Position numbers and translations under genes: made by a program. A stretch of DNA of 32,000 nt from Moritella sp. JT01 (GTDB lineage Bacteria; Pseudomonadota; Gammaproteobacteria; Enterobacterales; Moritellaceae): NCBI RefSeq assembly GCF_001574435.1, contig NZ_LOCN01000001.1, forward strand, positions 297,801 to 329,800. The letters run 5' to 3'. The notes beneath the pieces were generated by a model, which was not told the origin of the DNA, did no database searches, and saw only the letters and a list, made by a program, of their open reading frames with translations. Positions 5,012-11,423 of the stretch are shown one piece after another; position 1 is the first letter of the stretch; every line of letters starts with the position of its first letter.

Positions 5012-5097
5012 GCCCGAGTGGTGAAATCGGTAGACACAAGGGATTTAAAATCCCTCGCTTAATAGGCGTGCCGGTTCAATTCCGGCCTCGGGCACCA
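5012..5097 (+). tRNA. tRNA-Leu (anticodon UAA), copy 1
   Basis: 86 nt. Acceptor GCCCGAG/CTCGGGC followed by A-CCA. Anticodon loop TTTAAAA gives TAA. Long variable arm. Similar to E. coli leuZ. Confidence 0.93.
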
Positions 5098-5148
5098 ATT
5101 TCTTTTTGTTAGATATAACGTTAAACATATACTTTAAATAAAATATTT

Positions 5149-5222
5149 GGCGGGTTGGCAGAGTGGCTATGCAGCGGATTGCAAATCCGTGGACCTCGAT
5201 TCGACTTCGGGACCCGCCTCCA
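5149..5222 (+). tRNA. tRNA-Cys (anticodon GCA), copy 1
   Basis: 74 nt. GGCGGGT...ACCCGCC-T-CCA. Anticodon arm GCGGATTGCAAATCCGT. Collinear with E. coli cysT. Confidence 0.92.
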
Positions 5223-5289
5223 TGATTTAAGCTTGAAAGAGCAAGTTTGTTGGTTCTGCACTGGAACGAATAAATTATAAAAATTCAGT

Positions 5290-5375
5290 GCCCGAGTGGT
5301 GAAATCGGTAGACACAAGGGATTTAAAATCCCTCGCTTAATAGGCGTGCCGGTTCAATTCCGGCCTCGGGCACCA
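5290..5375 (+). tRNA. tRNA-Leu (anticodon UAA), copy 2
   Basis: Identical to 5012-5097. Confidence 0.93.
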
Positions 5376-5462
5376 ATTAATACAAATACTAGAAATAGTA
5401 TATCTCGCTAAGATGTAAAATTAGCACCCTGTATTAGCAACGAAAGTTGTGATGGCAGGATA

Positions 5463-5536
5463 TGGCGGGTTGGCAGAGTGGCTATGCAGCGGATTGCAAA
5501 TCCGTGGACCTCGATTCGACTTCGGGACCCGCCTCC
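5463..5536 (+). tRNA. tRNA-Cys (anticodon GCA), copy 2
   Basis: Identical to 5149-5222. The Cys-Leu spacer is also duplicated, with 2 substitutions. Confidence 0.92.
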
Positions 5537-5604
5537 ATGATTTAAGCTTGAAAGAGCAAGTTTATTGGTTCTGCACTGGAACCAATAAATTATAAAAATT
5601 CAGT

Positions 5605-5690
5605 GCCCGAGTGGTGAAATCGGTAGACACAAGGGATTTAAAATCCCTCGCTTAATAGGCGTGCCGGTTCAATTCCGGCCTCGGGCACCA
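5605..5690 (+). tRNA. tRNA-Leu (anticodon UAA), copy 3
   Basis: Identical to 5012-5097. Confidence 0.93.
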
Positions 5691-5698
5691 ACTTTTAT

Positions 5699-5727
5699 AA
5701 AAAACCAGCTTATAGCTGGTTTTTTTA
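5699..5727 (+). terminator. Rho-independent terminator ending the tRNA operon
   Basis: AAAAACCAGCT-TAT-AGCTGGTTTTTTT: a 7-bp GC-containing stem extended by A/T pairs, followed by a T7 run. Confidence 0.8.
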
Positions 5728-5946
5728 TGCCTGAAATTTACCTATGCACTAAAACCAGCGATTTCCTTTGTTCGGAATTATCTGATTTAATCAAAGTCGG
5801 CTTGTTCGGATAACGTTTTGTATTGTAGTTTTTGGTGTTAGTCGATTCCACATTGAACTGTAAACAATTGTCGATTGTAAAATCGTTGTGATAATAAGCA
5901 TATTGAATTTATTTTCAACCATCTGATATATATATAAAGGTTTTCA

Positions 5947-5974
5947 TTGACTCATATTTAGAATGCGGTAAAGT
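5947..5974 (+). promoter_or_regulatory. Candidate sigma70 promoter for the solo tRNA-Leu
   Basis: TTGACT, 16 nt, TAAAGT, then GAGCGC. A TAGAATGCG block shared with the 4916 promoter is also present, but at a non-functional spacing from the TTGACT, so the exact -10 is uncertain. Confidence 0.4.
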
Positions 5975-6019
5975 GAGCGCATATCCGGTTAGGCAGCTAG
6001 CTTAATTGTTTATCACTCA

Positions 6020-6105
6020 GCCCGAGTGGTGAAATCGGTAGACACAAGGGATTTAAAATCCCTCGCTTAATAGGCGTGCCGGTTCAATTCCGGCCTCGGG
6101 CACCA
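6020..6105 (+). tRNA. tRNA-Leu (anticodon UAA), copy 4 (solo transcription unit)
   Basis: Identical to 5012-5097, separated from the array by a terminator and 330 bp. Confidence 0.93.
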
Positions 6106-6115
6106 AATTTAGAAA

Positions 6116-6143
6116 AAGGCTTACCATTAGGTAAGCCTTTTTT
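6116..6143 (+). terminator. Rho-independent terminator after the solo tRNA-Leu
   Basis: AAGGCTTACC-ATTA-GGTAAGCCTT: a 10-bp stem followed by a T-run. Confidence 0.85.
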
Positions 6144-6228
6144 GCTTTCTGGCATTTAAAATAATTCTTGTTTCTTCTATTCCAAGTGCTTATGATACGT
6201 AATTATACTTTATGATTATTTGTCTTCT

Positions 6229-6702
6229 ATGCTACTTCGATTGATGCGCTATTTTACTCTGTTATTTGTTATGGTTATGGGCTTTAATGCTCAGGCTGAC
6301 ACATACACAGAATTAGCGATACCATCAACACCGTTATTAGCGCCAGCCTCTTTACTTGTAAATGCGAATGAAGCGGGTACTGCTTACCAAGATGTCGGTG
6401 AATCAGAACAACCCCCTGTCTCATCGCCAACTCATGCTTATGAATTTGCTTTAACGGAAACCTCCCGTTATACCAGTGCTGGTCGTTTACGGTTAAATAA
6501 TCCCGAACCGGACTATCAGATAGAGATTGAATTATCGATTCCACCATCAGCGTCGTTGGTGATCGGCTATGCGGTAAATATTAATTTCGAGCAATACTGG
6601 TTAACCGGCACATCTTTTTCTAAGTCGCGAATATCGGGCTGGAAAGACAGTAATTTATTATATTCTCACCGCCAATACCCCGCTGTTATTACCTCTGTTT
6701 AG
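6229..6702 (+). CDS. vemP: VemP-like secreted translation-arrest (secretion monitor) leader peptide for secDF
   Basis: About 157 aa from the ATG at 6229 (the track ORF starts at the TTG at 6220). N-terminal signal peptide MLLRLMRYFTLLFVMVMGFNAQA|DT. No other recognisable domain. The C-terminus ...GTSFSKSRISGWKDSNLLYSHRQYPAVITSV resembles the Vibrio alginolyticus VemP arrest motif as I recall it (HRISGWKETNAMYVALNSQ). Located directly upstream of a secDF pair that lacks yajC. The identification rests on motif recall plus context; no search was run. Confidence 0.62.
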   Translation: MLLRLMRYFTLLFVMVMGFNAQADTYTELAIPSTPLLAPASLLVNANEAGTAYQDVGESEQPPVSSPTHAYEFALTETSRYTSAGRLRLNNPEPDYQIEIELSIPPSASLVIGYAVNINFEQYWLTGTSFSKSRISGWKDSNLLYSHRQYPAVITSV

Positions 6703-6925
6703 ACAAAAATGTAAGTATTAACCATACTGCTTTTTTGTTGTATTTATCTGCTTAACTATCCTAGTTTCACTAGACATAATTACTAGAAATAGTACTGAAC
6801 ATAACGCGTTCATAACGCTCTTGTCAGGCTCTATAAGCAAGTTAATCACCAATATGCCTGCGTTTTATGTAAGAACGTTATATATCTATTTTCTATATAT
6901 ACCTTTTATATAGAAACGGGCATTG

Positions 6926-8764
6926 ATGGACAGCGATCAAATGACAAAAAAATTAAATTCAAAAGCCCAACGTAAACGATTAAACCATTATGCAGGTTGG
7001 AAGTATGTGGTTCTAATCTGCACTGTCTTAATTATGCTATTAAGTGCGATCCCTACTTTATATGGTGAAAATCCGGCACTGCAAATTAACCATAAACAAG
7101 GTCAACAACCTGCTATTCACGTGCTTAAGCAGACACTAGAAGAAAGTAATATTGCGGTAACACGTATCGATCAAGACATGGATAAAACCACGATAGTGTT
7201 AACAGACTCTAGCACTCAAACACGTGCTAAGGCGATACTCGAAGCCATATTGCCTGCAAATGATGACATTACTTTAGCACTCGTTTCTGCCGCGCCGTCT
7301 TGGTTACAGAGTATGGGACTAAAGCCGATAAAATTAGGTTTGGATCTACGTGGCGGTGTGCAGTTCTTGCTAGATGTTGATATGGAACCGGTATTCAATA
7401 TCAGAGCACAGCAATTGGTAGATAACTTACGGGCTGATTTTCGTGAGGAAGGGTTTCGAGGTGTTCGAATTAGCATTAATCATAATAATAGTTTGCAACT
7501 GAACTTGCCCACCAATGAAGAAAAAGTCACATTATTGAAATTAATGCACAACAGCTATCCACAATGGAAAGTAACTCAGAGTTCGGGGTTATTGGTTGAG
7601 GTGAGTATTCCACAAGCTGAAAAGACCGACATCATTAACCTAACTGTGCAGCAGAATTTACAAACAATGCGCAGTCGTATCGCAGAGTTAGGTATTACTG
7701 AAGCGATGGTTCAGCGCCAAGGTGAGCATCGTATCCGTATTGAATTACCCGGTGTGCAAGATCCTGCGACGGCAAAAAACGTTATCGGCGCGACAGCCAG
7801 TCTTGCCTTTCATGAGCTTAAAAACACAAGCAATGGAAGTATGCTCGTGAATAATAATCAGGGGATGCCAATACGTATTGATCGTGATGCCATATTAGGT
7901 GGTGAACACATTATTGATGCGCGAGCCAGTGTTGGTGAAATGGGGGCAGCAGAAGTTAATATTACGTTAGATAACGCCGGTGGTAAAAAAATGTCGAGCT
8001 TTACCAAGCATAATATTGGCAAGCCGATGGCAACGCTCTATAGCGAGTACAGTCGTAACGCGGATGGTTCTACCAAAAAGACTAGCAACATTATTAGTGT
8101 CGCCACCATTCAAGCCCAGTTAGGCAGTCAATTTAGAATCACGGGTGCAGGTAGTATGGTTGATGCAAAAGAGCTTGCATTGTTGCTACGTGCGGGGTCG
8201 TTAACTGCACCAGTGACGATTGTTGAAGAAAGAACGATAGGTCCTTCACTGGGGGCCGAGAATATTCAAAATGGCTTCTCAGCATTAGCGCTCGGGCTAG
8301 GTTTAACCTTGGTATTTATGGCGCTGTGGTATCGTCGCCTAGGCTGGGTTGCGAATGTCGCACTCATTGCCAATATTATTATTTTATTTGGTTTATTGGC
8401 TCTGATCCCTGGTGCTGTCTTAACGCTACCGGGTATTGCAGGGTTAGTACTTACTGTTGGTATGGCCGTCGATACAAATGTACTGGTGTTTGAGCGTATT
8501 CGAGACAAATTACGAGAAGGACGTAGTTTTGCACAAGCTATTGATCGTGGTTTTGATAGTGCATTCGCTACGATTGTTGATGCCAATATCACCACCTTAA
8601 TTATTGCGGTTGTACTGTATTCGGTCGGTCGGGGACCTGTGCAAGGATTCGCTTTAACGCTGGGCTTAGGTATCTTAACCAGTATGTTTACAGGCATCTT
8701 GGTATCACGTGCATTAATTAATAAATTATGGGGTCGTGATACTCGTCATGACTTGAAGGTATAG
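6926..8764 (+). CDS. secD: Protein translocase subunit SecD (probable second, VemP-associated paralogue)
   Basis: HYAGWKYVVLI...LYGENPALQI N-terminus, LGLDLRGGVQFLLDVD, large periplasmic domain, C-terminal TM bundle with VDTNVLVFERIRD. Start ambiguous: TTG 6923, ATG 6926 or ATG 6941. No yajC upstream. Confidence 0.93.
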   Translation: MDSDQMTKKLNSKAQRKRLNHYAGWKYVVLICTVLIMLLSAIPTLYGENPALQINHKQGQQPAIHVLKQTLEESNIAVTRIDQDMDKTTIVLTDSSTQTRAKAILEAILPANDDITLALVSAAPSWLQSMGLKPIKLGLDLRGGVQFLLDVDMEPVFNIRAQQLVDNLRADFREEGFRGVRISINHNNSLQLNLPTNEEKVTLLKLMHNSYPQWKVTQSSGLLVEVSIPQAEKTDIINLTVQQNLQTMRSRIAELGITEAMVQRQGEHRIRIELPGVQDPATAKNVIGATASLAFHELKNTSNGSMLVNNNQGMPIRIDRDAILGGEHIIDARASVGEMGAAEVNITLDNAGGKKMSSFTKHNIGKPMATLYSEYSRNADGSTKKTSNIISVATIQAQLGSQFRITGAGSMVDAKELALLLRAGSLTAPVTIVEERTIGPSLGAENIQNGFSALALGLGLTLVFMALWYRRLGWVANVALIANIIILFGLLALIPGAVLTLPGIAGLVLTVGMAVDTNVLVFERIRDKLREGRSFAQAIDRGFDSAFATIVDANITTLIIAVVLYSVGRGPVQGFALTLGLGILTSMFTGILVSRALINKLWGRDTRHDLKV

Positions 8765-9684
8765 TGAATATGAACAAAAACAATAGAAATAAATACAGTA
8801 CATTACGTTATATCAGTAGTGCTATGTCAGTGGTTTTTATGCTTATCGCAATTGCATTTATTAGTATTAATGGACTGAACTGGGGCTTGGACTTCACTGG
8901 TGGCGTTATCACCGAAGTGCAGCTTGATCCAAGCATTACAATGAGTGAGATCTCACCATTATTACAGTCAGTACTTAATCAAAATGTCAGTGTGATTGAA
9001 GGGGGAGAACTTGGCCGCTGGATCTTACGTTATGCTGAGCCTGCTGCAGGCATGAGTATTCCGGATATTACGCAGGTACTCGCGCCATTGGCAACCAATA
9101 TTCAAGTATTAAACACCAGTATTGTTGGCTCTCAAATCGGTCAAGAGTTAGCGGAGCAAGGTGGTCTTGCACTCTTAGTGTCTATGCTGTGTATCATGGC
9201 GTATTTAAGCTATCGTTTTGAATGGCGTTTGGCGTCGGGTGCATTATTTGCCTTAATACACGATGTGTTATTTGTACTCGGGGTATTTGCTGCGCTGCAA
9301 CTTGAGTTTAACCTGACGGTATTTGCGGCGATATTGGCGATTATTGGGTATTCATTGAATGATTCTATTATTATTGGGGATCGTATCCGCGAGTTACTTA
9401 TTCTTAAGCCAACCTTAGCGATAGCTGATGTGAATAATGAAGCGATTGCGGCAACGTTCTCTCGCACTATGGTGACATCGGGTACCACCTTAATGACAGT
9501 TTCGGCATTATGGTTACTTGGCGGAGGACCTTTGAACGGATTCTCTACTGCGATGTTCATTGGTTTAATTGTCGGCACATGGTCATCGATTGCTGTTGCG
9601 ACGACTTTACCTGAATGTTGGGGCTTAAATGCCAAACATTATCAGGTTGTTGAGCGAGAGGATCGATTTAGCGAAGGCTTGTAA
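8764..9684 (+). CDS. secF: Protein translocase subunit SecF
   Basis: GLNWGLDFTGG, YRFEWRLASGA, GYSLNDSIIIGDRIRE, collinear with E. coli SecF. The GTG at 8764 overlaps the secD stop by 1 nt; the ATG at 8770 is an alternative start. Confidence 0.93.
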   Translation: MNMNKNNRNKYSTLRYISSAMSVVFMLIAIAFISINGLNWGLDFTGGVITEVQLDPSITMSEISPLLQSVLNQNVSVIEGGELGRWILRYAEPAAGMSIPDITQVLAPLATNIQVLNTSIVGSQIGQELAEQGGLALLVSMLCIMAYLSYRFEWRLASGALFALIHDVLFVLGVFAALQLEFNLTVFAAILAIIGYSLNDSIIIGDRIRELLILKPTLAIADVNNEAIAATFSRTMVTSGTTLMTVSALWLLGGGPLNGFSTAMFIGLIVGTWSSIAVATTLPECWGLNAKHYQVVEREDRFSEGL

Positions 9685-9956: not shown

Positions 9957-11423
9957 ATGGATACTACTGAGTCAGTTTTTGTAATTGATGAGAATATTGA
10001 ACGCAGAAAAAATTTAGAAACAATCTTGTCCTTTCTTGGTGAAAGTTGGCAGAGTTATGATTCCCATATCAATATTAATGCGAAGATCGATCTTGCTGCC
10101 AATAGTGTTATCGTTTCTTCAGATAATTACTCAGAAAAGGAATTATCTGCATTACTTGATGCTAACCCAATGAATCCGTTTTTGACTTTTGGTGTACAAA
10201 GCACTGCATCAGAGGAAGGTAATTTAATTGGTCATATCGAGCTGCCTTTATCTTATCAACAACTGACACTCTTACTTGGACGTTGCCAATCTTATCGCCA
10301 ATGTGTGGCGAGTAAGTTAGGACAATCAGCATCCGCGTCAAAAGCATTAATTAAGCAGTTGGTTGGTCGTGGTGATGCGATCCAAAGTGTCCGTCATTTG
10401 ATCACGCAAGTGGCGAAAAAAAGCGCGAATGTTTTAGTGTTGGGTGAATCCGGCACGGGTAAAGAAGTGATTGCCCGTTCAATCCATGATGCATCATCAC
10501 GTAACAATGGTCCATTTGTCCCTATTAACTGTGGTGCTATTCCGGCTGAATTATTAGAAAGTGAATTATTCGGTCATGAAAAAGGTGCATTTACCGGCGC
10601 GTTTTCAGCCCGTAAAGGACGTTTTGAACTGGCCTGTGGTGGTACTTTATTTCTTGATGAAATCGGTGATATGCCACAGCCAATGCAAGTGAAATTATTA
10701 CGTGTTTTACAAGAACGTGTTTTTGAACGCGTGGGTGGCAGTAAAGCAATTAAAGCTGATGTCAGGATTATTGCGGCAACACACCGTAATTTAGAAAAAA
10801 TGATCCTTGATGGTGAATTCCGTGAAGATCTCTATTACCGTTTAAATGTATTTCCAATTGAAAGCCCTGCATTACGTGAGCGCCCAGATGATATCCCATT
10901 ATTGATCCAAGAGTTATTACGTCGACACGAAGCAGAGCATGATGCGACAATCTTATTTACGCAACGGGCAATGGAATCGTTAATGCAACATTCATGGCCC
11001 GGTAATGTACGTGAGCTATCGAATTTGATCGAACGTTTACTTATCATGACGGCTGGTAATATTGTTGATATTGGTGAGCTACCTGCTAAATATCGTTATA
11101 ACGATGATGGTGAAAGTCAGATTGTGAGTTCAGAATTACCGAGTGAATTAGCAGAGCGTGACGCTATTTCGGCTATGTTTAATGATGATATTTTTGCCGA
11201 TGTAGAAGAATCACAAGAAGATGGTTTCTTCTCGATGCCAAATAGTTTGCCTGAAACGGGTGTGAATCTTAAAGAGATGCTGGCTGAATTCGAAATTGAC
11301 ATGATCAAACAAGCCCTCGATCAACAAGCGCACGTTGTCGCCAGAGCGGCGGATCAACTTGGCATGCGTAGAACGACACTGGTTGAAAAAATGCGTAAGT
11401 ATGGATTACAGAAAGAAGCTTAA
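9957..11423 (+). CDS. flrA: Sigma54-dependent flagellar master regulator FlrA/FleQ
   Basis: FleQ-type N-terminal domain. AAA+ core with [56 protein letters not shown]-terminal Fis-type [24 protein letters not shown]. Positioned before flrBC. Confidence 0.92.

Follow-up and report, generated by a model that had tools for sequence, protein, structure and literature searches.

A probable VemP orthologue encoded upstream of an accessory-type secD–secF pair in Moritella sp. JT01

In a 32,000-nucleotide stretch of the Moritella sp. JT01 genome (GCF_001574435.1, contig NZ_LOCN01000001.1, positions 297,801 to 329,800; hereafter the window, whose own forward-strand numbering is used throughout), the open reading frame (ORF) at 6229–6702 probably encodes the Moritella orthologue of the Sec-monitoring arrest peptide VemP, in an operon with an accessory-type secD–secF pair. 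Judging from sequence, we put the probability of this assignment at roughly 85%. VemP, for which Ishii et al. 2015 is reportedly the original paper, belongs to a small group of force-sensing nascent chains that are well characterised, and through it marine bacteria can exchange one SecDF paralogue for another when export is impaired, for instance at low Na+. The identity of this ORF as VemP is already known, and the value of the present analysis lies in confirmation and detail: a Moritella/Aliivibrio branch with a different sequence next to the peptidyl-transferase centre (PTC) and an invariant proline, a long secD leader with conserved RNA elements, and doubtful annotated starts for both vemP and secD.

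The coding sequence, 157 amino acids plus a stop codon at 6700–6702, has possible starts at TTG 6220 and ATG 6229, and the RefSeq annotation (AKG98_RS01355) begins at ATG 6244, giving 152 amino acids. Compared with the RefSeq start, ATG 6229 adds MLLRL, and because an MLxRxxR N-terminus is kept in divergent homologues (41–48% identity), the longer form from ATG 6229 is more likely. Its N-terminus, MLLRLMRYFTLLFVMVMGFNAQA followed by DT, has two arginines, a hydrophobic core and an AxA site (AQA), from which we predict a Sec signal peptide at residues 1–23 (6229–6297), cleaved between AQA and D; none of the 14 Moritella homologues differs at G18, N20, Q22 or A23. Fujiwara et al. 2024 (PMC10987492) report a SignalP-6.0 signal peptide for residues 1–18 of the 152-residue form, equivalent to 1–23 of the 157-residue form. 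Scans of the ORF against Pfam and NCBIfam found no domain and no family. The product ends in ...SRISGWKDSNLLYSHRQYPAVITSV (...FSKSRISGWKDSNLLYSHRQYPAVITSV), in which RISGWKDSNLLY, residues 134–145, fits the VemP consensus RxxxWKxxNxxY as R134-ISG-W138-K139-DS-N142-LL-Y145, leaving 12 residues from the tyrosine to the stop. A signal peptide, the lack of a recognisable domain and this C-terminus had all been described in an earlier, sequence-only reading of the window, and the translation and both domain scans agree with it on each.

The similarity to VemP exceeds the motif. Using comparison VemPs taken from Supplementary Data 3 of Fujiwara et al. 2024 (PMC10987492), BLASTP gave 49 bits over 74 residues against the published VemP of Shewanella piezotolerans and 47 bits over 88 residues against that of Aliivibrio fischeri, the Shewanella and Aliivibrio VemPs together spanning 45–49 bits; against a Vibrio alginolyticus-type sequence it gave just 30 bits, with weak similarity outside the motif. 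An hhalign comparison of 14 Moritella sequences with six published VemPs yielded a probability of 99.3% and an E-value of 2.7e-20 over 83 columns (residues 70–152). When 5.8 billion proteins were searched with the single sequence, the product was found at 100% identity as hypothetical protein AKG98_276 of Moritella sp. JT01, and Moritella relatives alone were retrieved; wider reach needed a profile, which extended to one Photobacterium protein and to unnamed metagenome proteins. All of these profile matches end R[ILV]SGWKDSN..Y, nearly all with a signal-peptide-like N-terminus. Of all PDB chains, only "VemP nascent chain", in 5NWY and four further entries, matched the profile significantly (E 1e-4); the alignment covers residues 22–149.

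A coincidental motif match in an unrelated hypothetical secreted protein would fit the lack of a Pfam or NCBIfam family and a single-sequence search that reached Moritella relatives only, yet it is refuted by the hhalign E-value over 83 columns, by a PDB search in which VemP was the best and only significant match, and by the published classification of the ORF as VemP. As the profile search, too, yields only proteins with the same motif, the chance that the resemblance is accidental is in our view negligible. Homology over about 83 residues likewise removes the objection, raised in the sequence-only reading, that similarity might be confined to the short motif.

The remaining likenesses to V. 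alginolyticus VemP that had been pointed out beforehand, in signal peptide, length, motif position and secDF context, also hold. Both proteins have a signal peptide and nearly the same length (157 residues here, 159 in V. alginolyticus), both are encoded directly upstream of an accessory-type secD–secF pair, and the spacer from signal peptide to arrest site is long, as in VemPs generally (128 residues here; family median 133). The V. alginolyticus arrest motif given in the sequence-only reading is correct: HRISGWKETNAMYVALNSQ spans H138–Q156, with Q156 in the ribosomal P site and FSA following it (Su et al. 2017, PMC5449182). The length of 159 residues given there is consistent with the numbering of H138–Q156 plus FSA, and the VemP of V. 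parahaemolyticus, which has the same C-terminus, is also 159 residues long.

The vemP homologue lies directly upstream of secD and secF on the same strand, its stop at 6702 being followed by secD from 6926 or 6941 and by secF from 8764. secD (6926–8764) has its RefSeq start at 6926, giving 612 amino acids, and an alternative at 6941, giving 607. Its product scores 989 bits on NCBIfam NF009545 (cut-off 728), on which the yajC-linked SecD of E. coli stays below the cut-off at 646 bits, and over its first 400 amino acids it shares 55% identity with the VemP-linked SecD of A. fischeri, 47% with that of V. parahaemolyticus and 36% with E. coli SecD. Since NF009545 is passed and the VemP-linked SecDs are closer than E. 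coli SecD, this SecD is of the VemP-associated SecD2 type. The start of secF (8764–9684; 256 bits on TIGR00966, Pfam SecD_SecF_C) overlaps the secD stop. A tblastn search with E. coli YajC found no yajC in the 32-kb window, bearing out, for the window, the earlier description of a secDF pair without yajC; one Moritella genome paper makes no mention of secD or yajC.

The order vemP-secD-secF is kept in all Moritella loci that extend far enough, and the same synteny is found in Photobacterium, Enterovibrio, Vibrio, Shewanella and Psychromonas. Within Moritella the conserved module is vemP-secD-secF-fleQ, with differing upstream neighbours. In the window, the upstream neighbour of the vemP homologue is a transfer RNA (tRNA) gene, tRNA-Leu, with its terminator, and a promoter and terminator scan gave no convincing vemP promoter.

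The earlier suggestion that this ORF would extend the known range of VemP does not stand. Fujiwara et al. 2024 (PMC10987492) collected 339 VemP-like sequences by the consensus RxxxWKxxNxxY, and their Supplementary Data 3 has a row for this very ORF: GCF_001574435.1, Moritella sp001574435 (JT01), NZ_LOCN01000001.1, upstream ORF (uORF) AKG98_RS01355, WP_067040195.1, 304044–304502, with secD AKG98_RS01360, AP given as VemP, AP_id as uDF_VemP_Enterobacterales, the motif WKDSN at 133 and the P site at 146. The nucleotide sequence of that row is the window from 6244 onward (offset 297,800; secD 304726 corresponds to 6926). The same table (PMC10987492) lists Moritella sp. PE36, Shewanella, Psychromonas, Paraglaciecola, Enterovibrio, Photobacterium and Aliivibrio, and thus VemP homologues in Moritellaceae, Shewanellaceae, Psychromonadaceae and Alteromonadaceae. 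Because the ORF and relatives in five families were listed in 2024, our analysis adds nothing to the VemP catalogue.

The residues through which V. alginolyticus VemP engages the ribosomal exit tunnel are retained. In structure 5NWY (PMC5449182), R139 contacts A752, W143 contacts R92 of uL22, K144 contacts U747 and Y150 contacts C2610; their counterparts here, within the shared RxxxWKxxNxxY core, are R134, W138, K139 and Y145. Arg-85, which governs how far arrest release depends on PpiD and SecDF and which VemP orthologues share (Miyazaki et al. 2020, PMC7793623), has its equivalent in R80 (codon 6466–6468), which precedes the motif tryptophan Trp138 by 58 residues, a spacing identical to that from Arg-85 to Trp-143; in our own reading of the alignment, 12 of 14 Moritella homologues have arginine at this position. 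The tunnel tryptophan further upstream is placed differently, W124 lying 14 residues before the motif tryptophan compared with 19 in V. alginolyticus.

Consensus fit and conservation in 12 Moritella loci delimit a predicted arrest sequence from R134 to P151 (RISGWKDSNLLYSHRQYP, 6628–6681). Codon comparison of these loci showed that the amino acids of residues 133–151 are kept while their codons vary synonymously: R134 is CGA, CGC or CGT, S136 is TCG, TCA or TCT, L144 uses four codons, P151 is CCC, CCT or CCA, and S146 and H147 also show synonymous changes. Because these codons change synonymously, it is the peptide rather than the RNA that is conserved here. Pro151 (codon CCC, 6679–6681) is invariant, and by its offset (Trp+13, equivalent to Gln156) it is the predicted P-site residue, in line with the position of 146 in 152-residue numbering given by Fujiwara et al. 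2024 (PMC10987492). Amino-acid conservation in the Moritella homologues ends at Pro151. Beyond it comes a six-codon tail (AVITSV plus stop, 6682–6702) in which all six positions vary across the 12 loci and the length is fixed at six codons; V. alginolyticus VemP also has a short non-conserved tail past the stall, of three residues compared with six here. Indirectly, this conservation pattern is what would be expected of an arrest point at or next to Pro151 combined with a spacing constraint downstream.

Among published relatives, A. fischeri VemP comes nearest at the C-terminus, ending ...SRVSAWKESNLLYSHRLFPAA and having the extension NLLYSHRxxP in common with Moritella. The Moritella ORF belongs to the same class as the VemP-class uORFs of Aliivibrio, Photobacterium, Shewanella, Psychromonas and Paraglaciecola (uDF_VemP_Enterobacterales, PMC10987492), with which it shares a PDYxxxxE(L/F)...P....(I/V)GY....W block upstream of the motif. 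After the tyrosine these uORFs diverge, reading YRFSQTR in Shewanella, YSQYGEQ in Photobacterium and Y(A/T)SKVTY in Psychromonas, and the tail past the predicted stall is longest in Moritella. The family consensus on which the classification relies leaves out the residues next to the PTC, and these vary by lineage.

By analogy with V. alginolyticus, the predicted signal peptide would target the nascent chain to SecYEG. Residues R134–P151 would fold compactly in the exit tunnel, contact 23S ribosomal RNA and uL22 through the Arg, Trp, Lys and Tyr side chains, and silence the PTC, so that the ribosome would pause with Pro151 or a neighbouring codon in the P site. Pulling by the translocon and, on the trans side, by SecDF and PpiD would free the stall, with R80 tuning the force needed. 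When export is poor, a ribosome parked over 6667–6695 would block pairing of the vemP 3′ end with 6926–6935 and leave this secD initiation region exposed, and SecDF would be made. In the V. alginolyticus system, regulation works by unmasking of the ribosome-binding site, and an unmasking switch would be the most likely regulatory mechanism here as well; the RNA evidence for the ribosome-parking step is weak and mixed.

To this RNA evidence the region between vemP and secD contributes several conserved elements, which we compared in 11 Moritella loci. The intergenic distance is 223 nucleotides to ATG 6926 and 238 to ATG 6941, compared with about 160 in V. alginolyticus. The final base of the vemP stop codon is also the first of a hairpin, P2 (6702–6739, ACAAAAAUGUAAGUAUUAACCAUACUGCUUUUUUGU), which uses a U-run as its 3′ arm; in the RNAalifold consensus its outer helix is paired in 100% of cells across all 11 loci, and four pairs vary on one side between Watson-Crick and G-U wobble. 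P2 resembles a terminator but has an AU-rich sequence and low stability (−9.2 kcal/mol, z −1.9), and it was not among the terminators predicted by the scan. A conserved non-coding block, TTGTCAGG.TCTATAAGCAAGTTAATCACC (6820–6853), aligns in most Moritella loci, and no convincing sigma-70 promoter match or structural role in the folds was found for it. It is followed by P3 (6854–6923), a large AU-rich hairpin whose basal helix is conserved in the 11 loci, with two covarying pairs changed on both sides, and whose 3′ arm (about 6917–6923) carries a G-rich Shine-Dalgarno candidate for ATG 6926. An Rfam scan of 6100–7000 gave nothing above gathering scores, and the weak matches at 6100–6177 appear to be the tRNA-Leu terminator hairpin.

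The secD initiation region (6926–6943) comprises ATG 6926, a GGACAG element and ATG 6941 (MTKK...), and its block TTGATGGACAGCGATCAAATG hardly varies. JT01 and PE36 have different annotated SecD starts, giving the 612-residue form (MDSDQMTKK) in JT01 and the 607-residue form (MTKK) in PE36. Nine loci read from ATG 6926 through MDSDQ into secD without a frame break; in the other two, L029 and L002, the upstream ATG opens a mini-ORF of four to five codons (about 3646–3663 in L029 and about 6689–6706 in L002) whose stop abuts (TAAATG) or overlaps (ATGA) the MTKK ATG, a pattern typical of translational coupling. Because the upstream ATG of these two loci opens a mini-ORF meeting the MTKK ATG, both secD starts are possible. 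We had considered ATG 6941 as the sole valid start and dropped the idea, the broken frames in L029 and L002 being these mini-ORFs.

Positions 6927–6935 have three mutually exclusive candidate partners. Helix a, from the minimum free energy fold, pairs 6681–6687 with 6929–6935; its 5′ arm takes in the codons that immediately follow Pro151, which a ribosome stalled there would cover. It is paired in 78% of cells and has three pairs with two-sided changes, but support for it is weak: some loci break it, and its compensatory changes may reflect one or two events. Helix b, from the RNAalifold consensus, pairs 6695–6701 with 6927–6933, with 95% of cells paired and no two-sided changes. The third partner is a local hairpin at 6923–6940. 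When the footprint of a ribosome stalled at Pro151 was masked in partition-function folding, the accessibility of GGAC 6928–6931 in the window rose from 0.13 to 0.47.

Several points weigh against the reading as a Sec-monitoring VemP with the mechanism set out above. The six residues leading up to the predicted stall read SHRQYP in place of VALNSQ, so the PTC-proximal half of the V. alginolyticus window is not matched: L153 and N154, which are important for arrest in V. alginolyticus, become R148 and Q149, and an invariant proline stands for Gln156. In V. alginolyticus VemP neither the P site nor the A site holds a proline, and arrest is weaker when the A-site codon is one for Pro; Moritella may therefore differ in its exact stall codon and in its PTC-proximal mechanism. 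The accessory nature of the SecDF pair is suggested by the SecD subfamily, from data confined to the 32-kb window. The intergenic region is long (about 220–240 nucleotides), and its conserved blocks have no assigned role. The masking effect appears in five of the 11 Moritella loci (the window and four relatives) and in none of the other six, and the same model gave no effect in two Vibrio loci with V. alginolyticus-type VemP, so that it is an unvalidated test. RNAduplex pairing of the vemP 3′ end with the secD initiation region, computed for 22 loci, was not significant: most z-scores lay between −1 and +1, and in most loci the pairing did not outdo that of shuffled controls. A literature search found no experiments on Moritella VemP and no main-text discussion of it. 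As the masking effect occurs in five of 11 Moritella loci and is absent in the Vibrio loci, we consider the RNA switch unproven rather than refuted.

The exchange of the PTC-proximal half, including L153 and N154, raises the question of whether this VemP descendant still stalls or has become an ordinary small secreted periplasmic protein, with secDF constitutive or otherwise controlled. The conserved stretch that precedes the motif (about 60 residues, P92–W124) could then reflect a folded periplasmic function, and the mixed RNA results from duplex prediction, masking and the Vibrio loci would be accounted for. However, the replaced segment is under strong purifying selection in Moritella, to judge from the synonymous changes at S146, H147 and P151, and it recurs as SHRLFP in A. 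fischeri VemP. Conservation halts abruptly at Pro151, as expected for an arrest point; the tunnel-contact residues are kept; linkage to secDF is held over at least six genera and three or more families; and Pfam and NCBIfam detect no enzymatic or structural domain. We therefore regard loss of stalling as very unlikely and favour a VemP orthologue that would still arrest its own translation.

A functional VemP might also have an output other than Shine-Dalgarno unmasking, acting through the hairpin and U-run at 6702–6739 (by attenuation or messenger RNA stability) or through coupling via the five-codon leader at ATG 6926. The hairpin and U-run directly follow the stop codon in 11 of 11 loci, and the constant six-codon tail suggests that the stall site has to keep a set distance from the RNA downstream; ATG 6926 is conserved, the mini-ORF stop meets the secD ATG in two loci, and direct pairing of the vemP 3′ end with the initiation region is statistically weak. 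Set against this are the AU-richness and low stability of the hairpin, which the terminator scan passed over, the position of a ribosome stalled at Pro151, which would stop about seven nucleotides short of it, and the precedent of ribosome-binding-site unmasking in the characterised V. alginolyticus system. An output of this other kind seems to us rather unlikely, and unmasking of the secD ribosome-binding site stays the preferred mechanism.

Other arrest peptides show parallels with the predicted Moritella system. E. coli SecM follows the same logic, being a signal-peptide uORF with a C-terminal arrest that is freed by Sec pulling and a stalled ribosome that unmasks a downstream ribosome-binding site; its arrest requires a Pro codon where the ribosome stalls, which calls to mind the invariant Pro151. 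It differs in having no sequence similarity and secA as its target gene, and its chain runs extended through the tunnel, unlike that of VemP, which packs into helices. ApdA, ApdP and uDF_RQH (RAPP/RGPP classes) are likewise found upstream of a secondary secDF with an N-terminal localisation signal, but they present an R-A/G-P-P motif at the PTC, which is lacking in the Moritella ORF of the WKxxN class. The Moritella/Aliivibrio subclass (…WK(D/E)SNLLYSHRxxP) could conceivably be a hybrid module, a tentative idea that we hold to be possible though doubtful: it would keep the mid-tunnel contacts, act at the PTC through an invariant stall-point proline as in SecM and RAPP peptides and thus unlike V. 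alginolyticus VemP, and signal through a structured leader of about 230 nucleotides, with the six-codon tail setting the stalled ribosome against a three-way RNA junction.

On either side of the vemP-secD-secF operon, the window holds tRNA arrays and flagellar genes. The first array (117–984) has three tRNA-Ser(UGA) copies; the second (5012–6105) has four tRNA-Leu(UAA) and two tRNA-Cys(GCA) in the order Leu-Cys-Leu-Cys-Leu-Leu, and appears to end in a hairpin terminator at about 6113–6145, just upstream of the vemP homologue. Directly 3′ of secF begins a flagellar gene cluster (9957–31575), whose first ORF (9957–11423) encodes a FleQ-type sigma-54 activator according to the domains seen in orthologues of related loci; secF and fleQ are adjacent in all examined Moritella loci that reach that far.

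ORFs with the VemP motif also occur without secD directly downstream, in Vibrio sp. D404a (L008:5794-6267), a Shewanella metagenome-assembled genome (L021:5686-6102) and Glaciecola sp. KUL10 (L023:5701-6195). In all three the next ORF is uncharacterised, and the Glaciecola ORF has a longer tail and no tyrosine at the expected position after its SGWKDSN core.

A genome scan with the Moritella profile additionally found, in Serratia sp. Ag1 (L019:5629-6093), a signal-peptide ORF with the C-terminus ...NWALHSSQQQSRISGWKDSNILYRGSVTYHL (...SRISGWKDSNILYRGSVTYHL). Rather than upstream of secDF, this VemP-family ORF sits between exuR and the DedA-family gene yqjA, which is followed by mzrA, and a second Serratia locus (L033:3501-3947) has the same exuR-yqjA-mzrA context. 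There are 27 further relatives, all of those with a source name coming from Serratia or Chania, and relatives of this type end RxGGWKESNxLYRGSLTYHS. Published arrest-peptide screens covered only regions upstream of secA, secDF and yidC, and our literature search found no paper connecting VemP with yqjA, or DedA proteins with arrest peptides. In E. coli K-12 an annotated 27-residue ORF, yqiM (VLMYQTRRTYQNSNNIAVVHLLKPAWR, L034:2869-2952), lies 21 nucleotides upstream of yqjA, in the place of the Serratia ORF; having no similarity to it and no VemP motif, yqiM was rejected as its counterpart. In Vibrio gelatinilyticus a DedA-family gene (L012:9319-9972) comes right after vemP-secD-secF, and MzrA (Pfam SecD-TM1, NCBIfam NF007915) resembles the SecD N-terminus (residues 26–137 of the window SecD). 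Taking the Serratia locus, the V. gelatinilyticus dedA gene and the likeness of MzrA to SecD together, we speculate that the yqjA-mzrA operon of enterobacteria could be what is left of a vemP-secDF2-dedA locus, and the Serratia ORF upstream of it may be a more interesting lead than the Moritella ORF.

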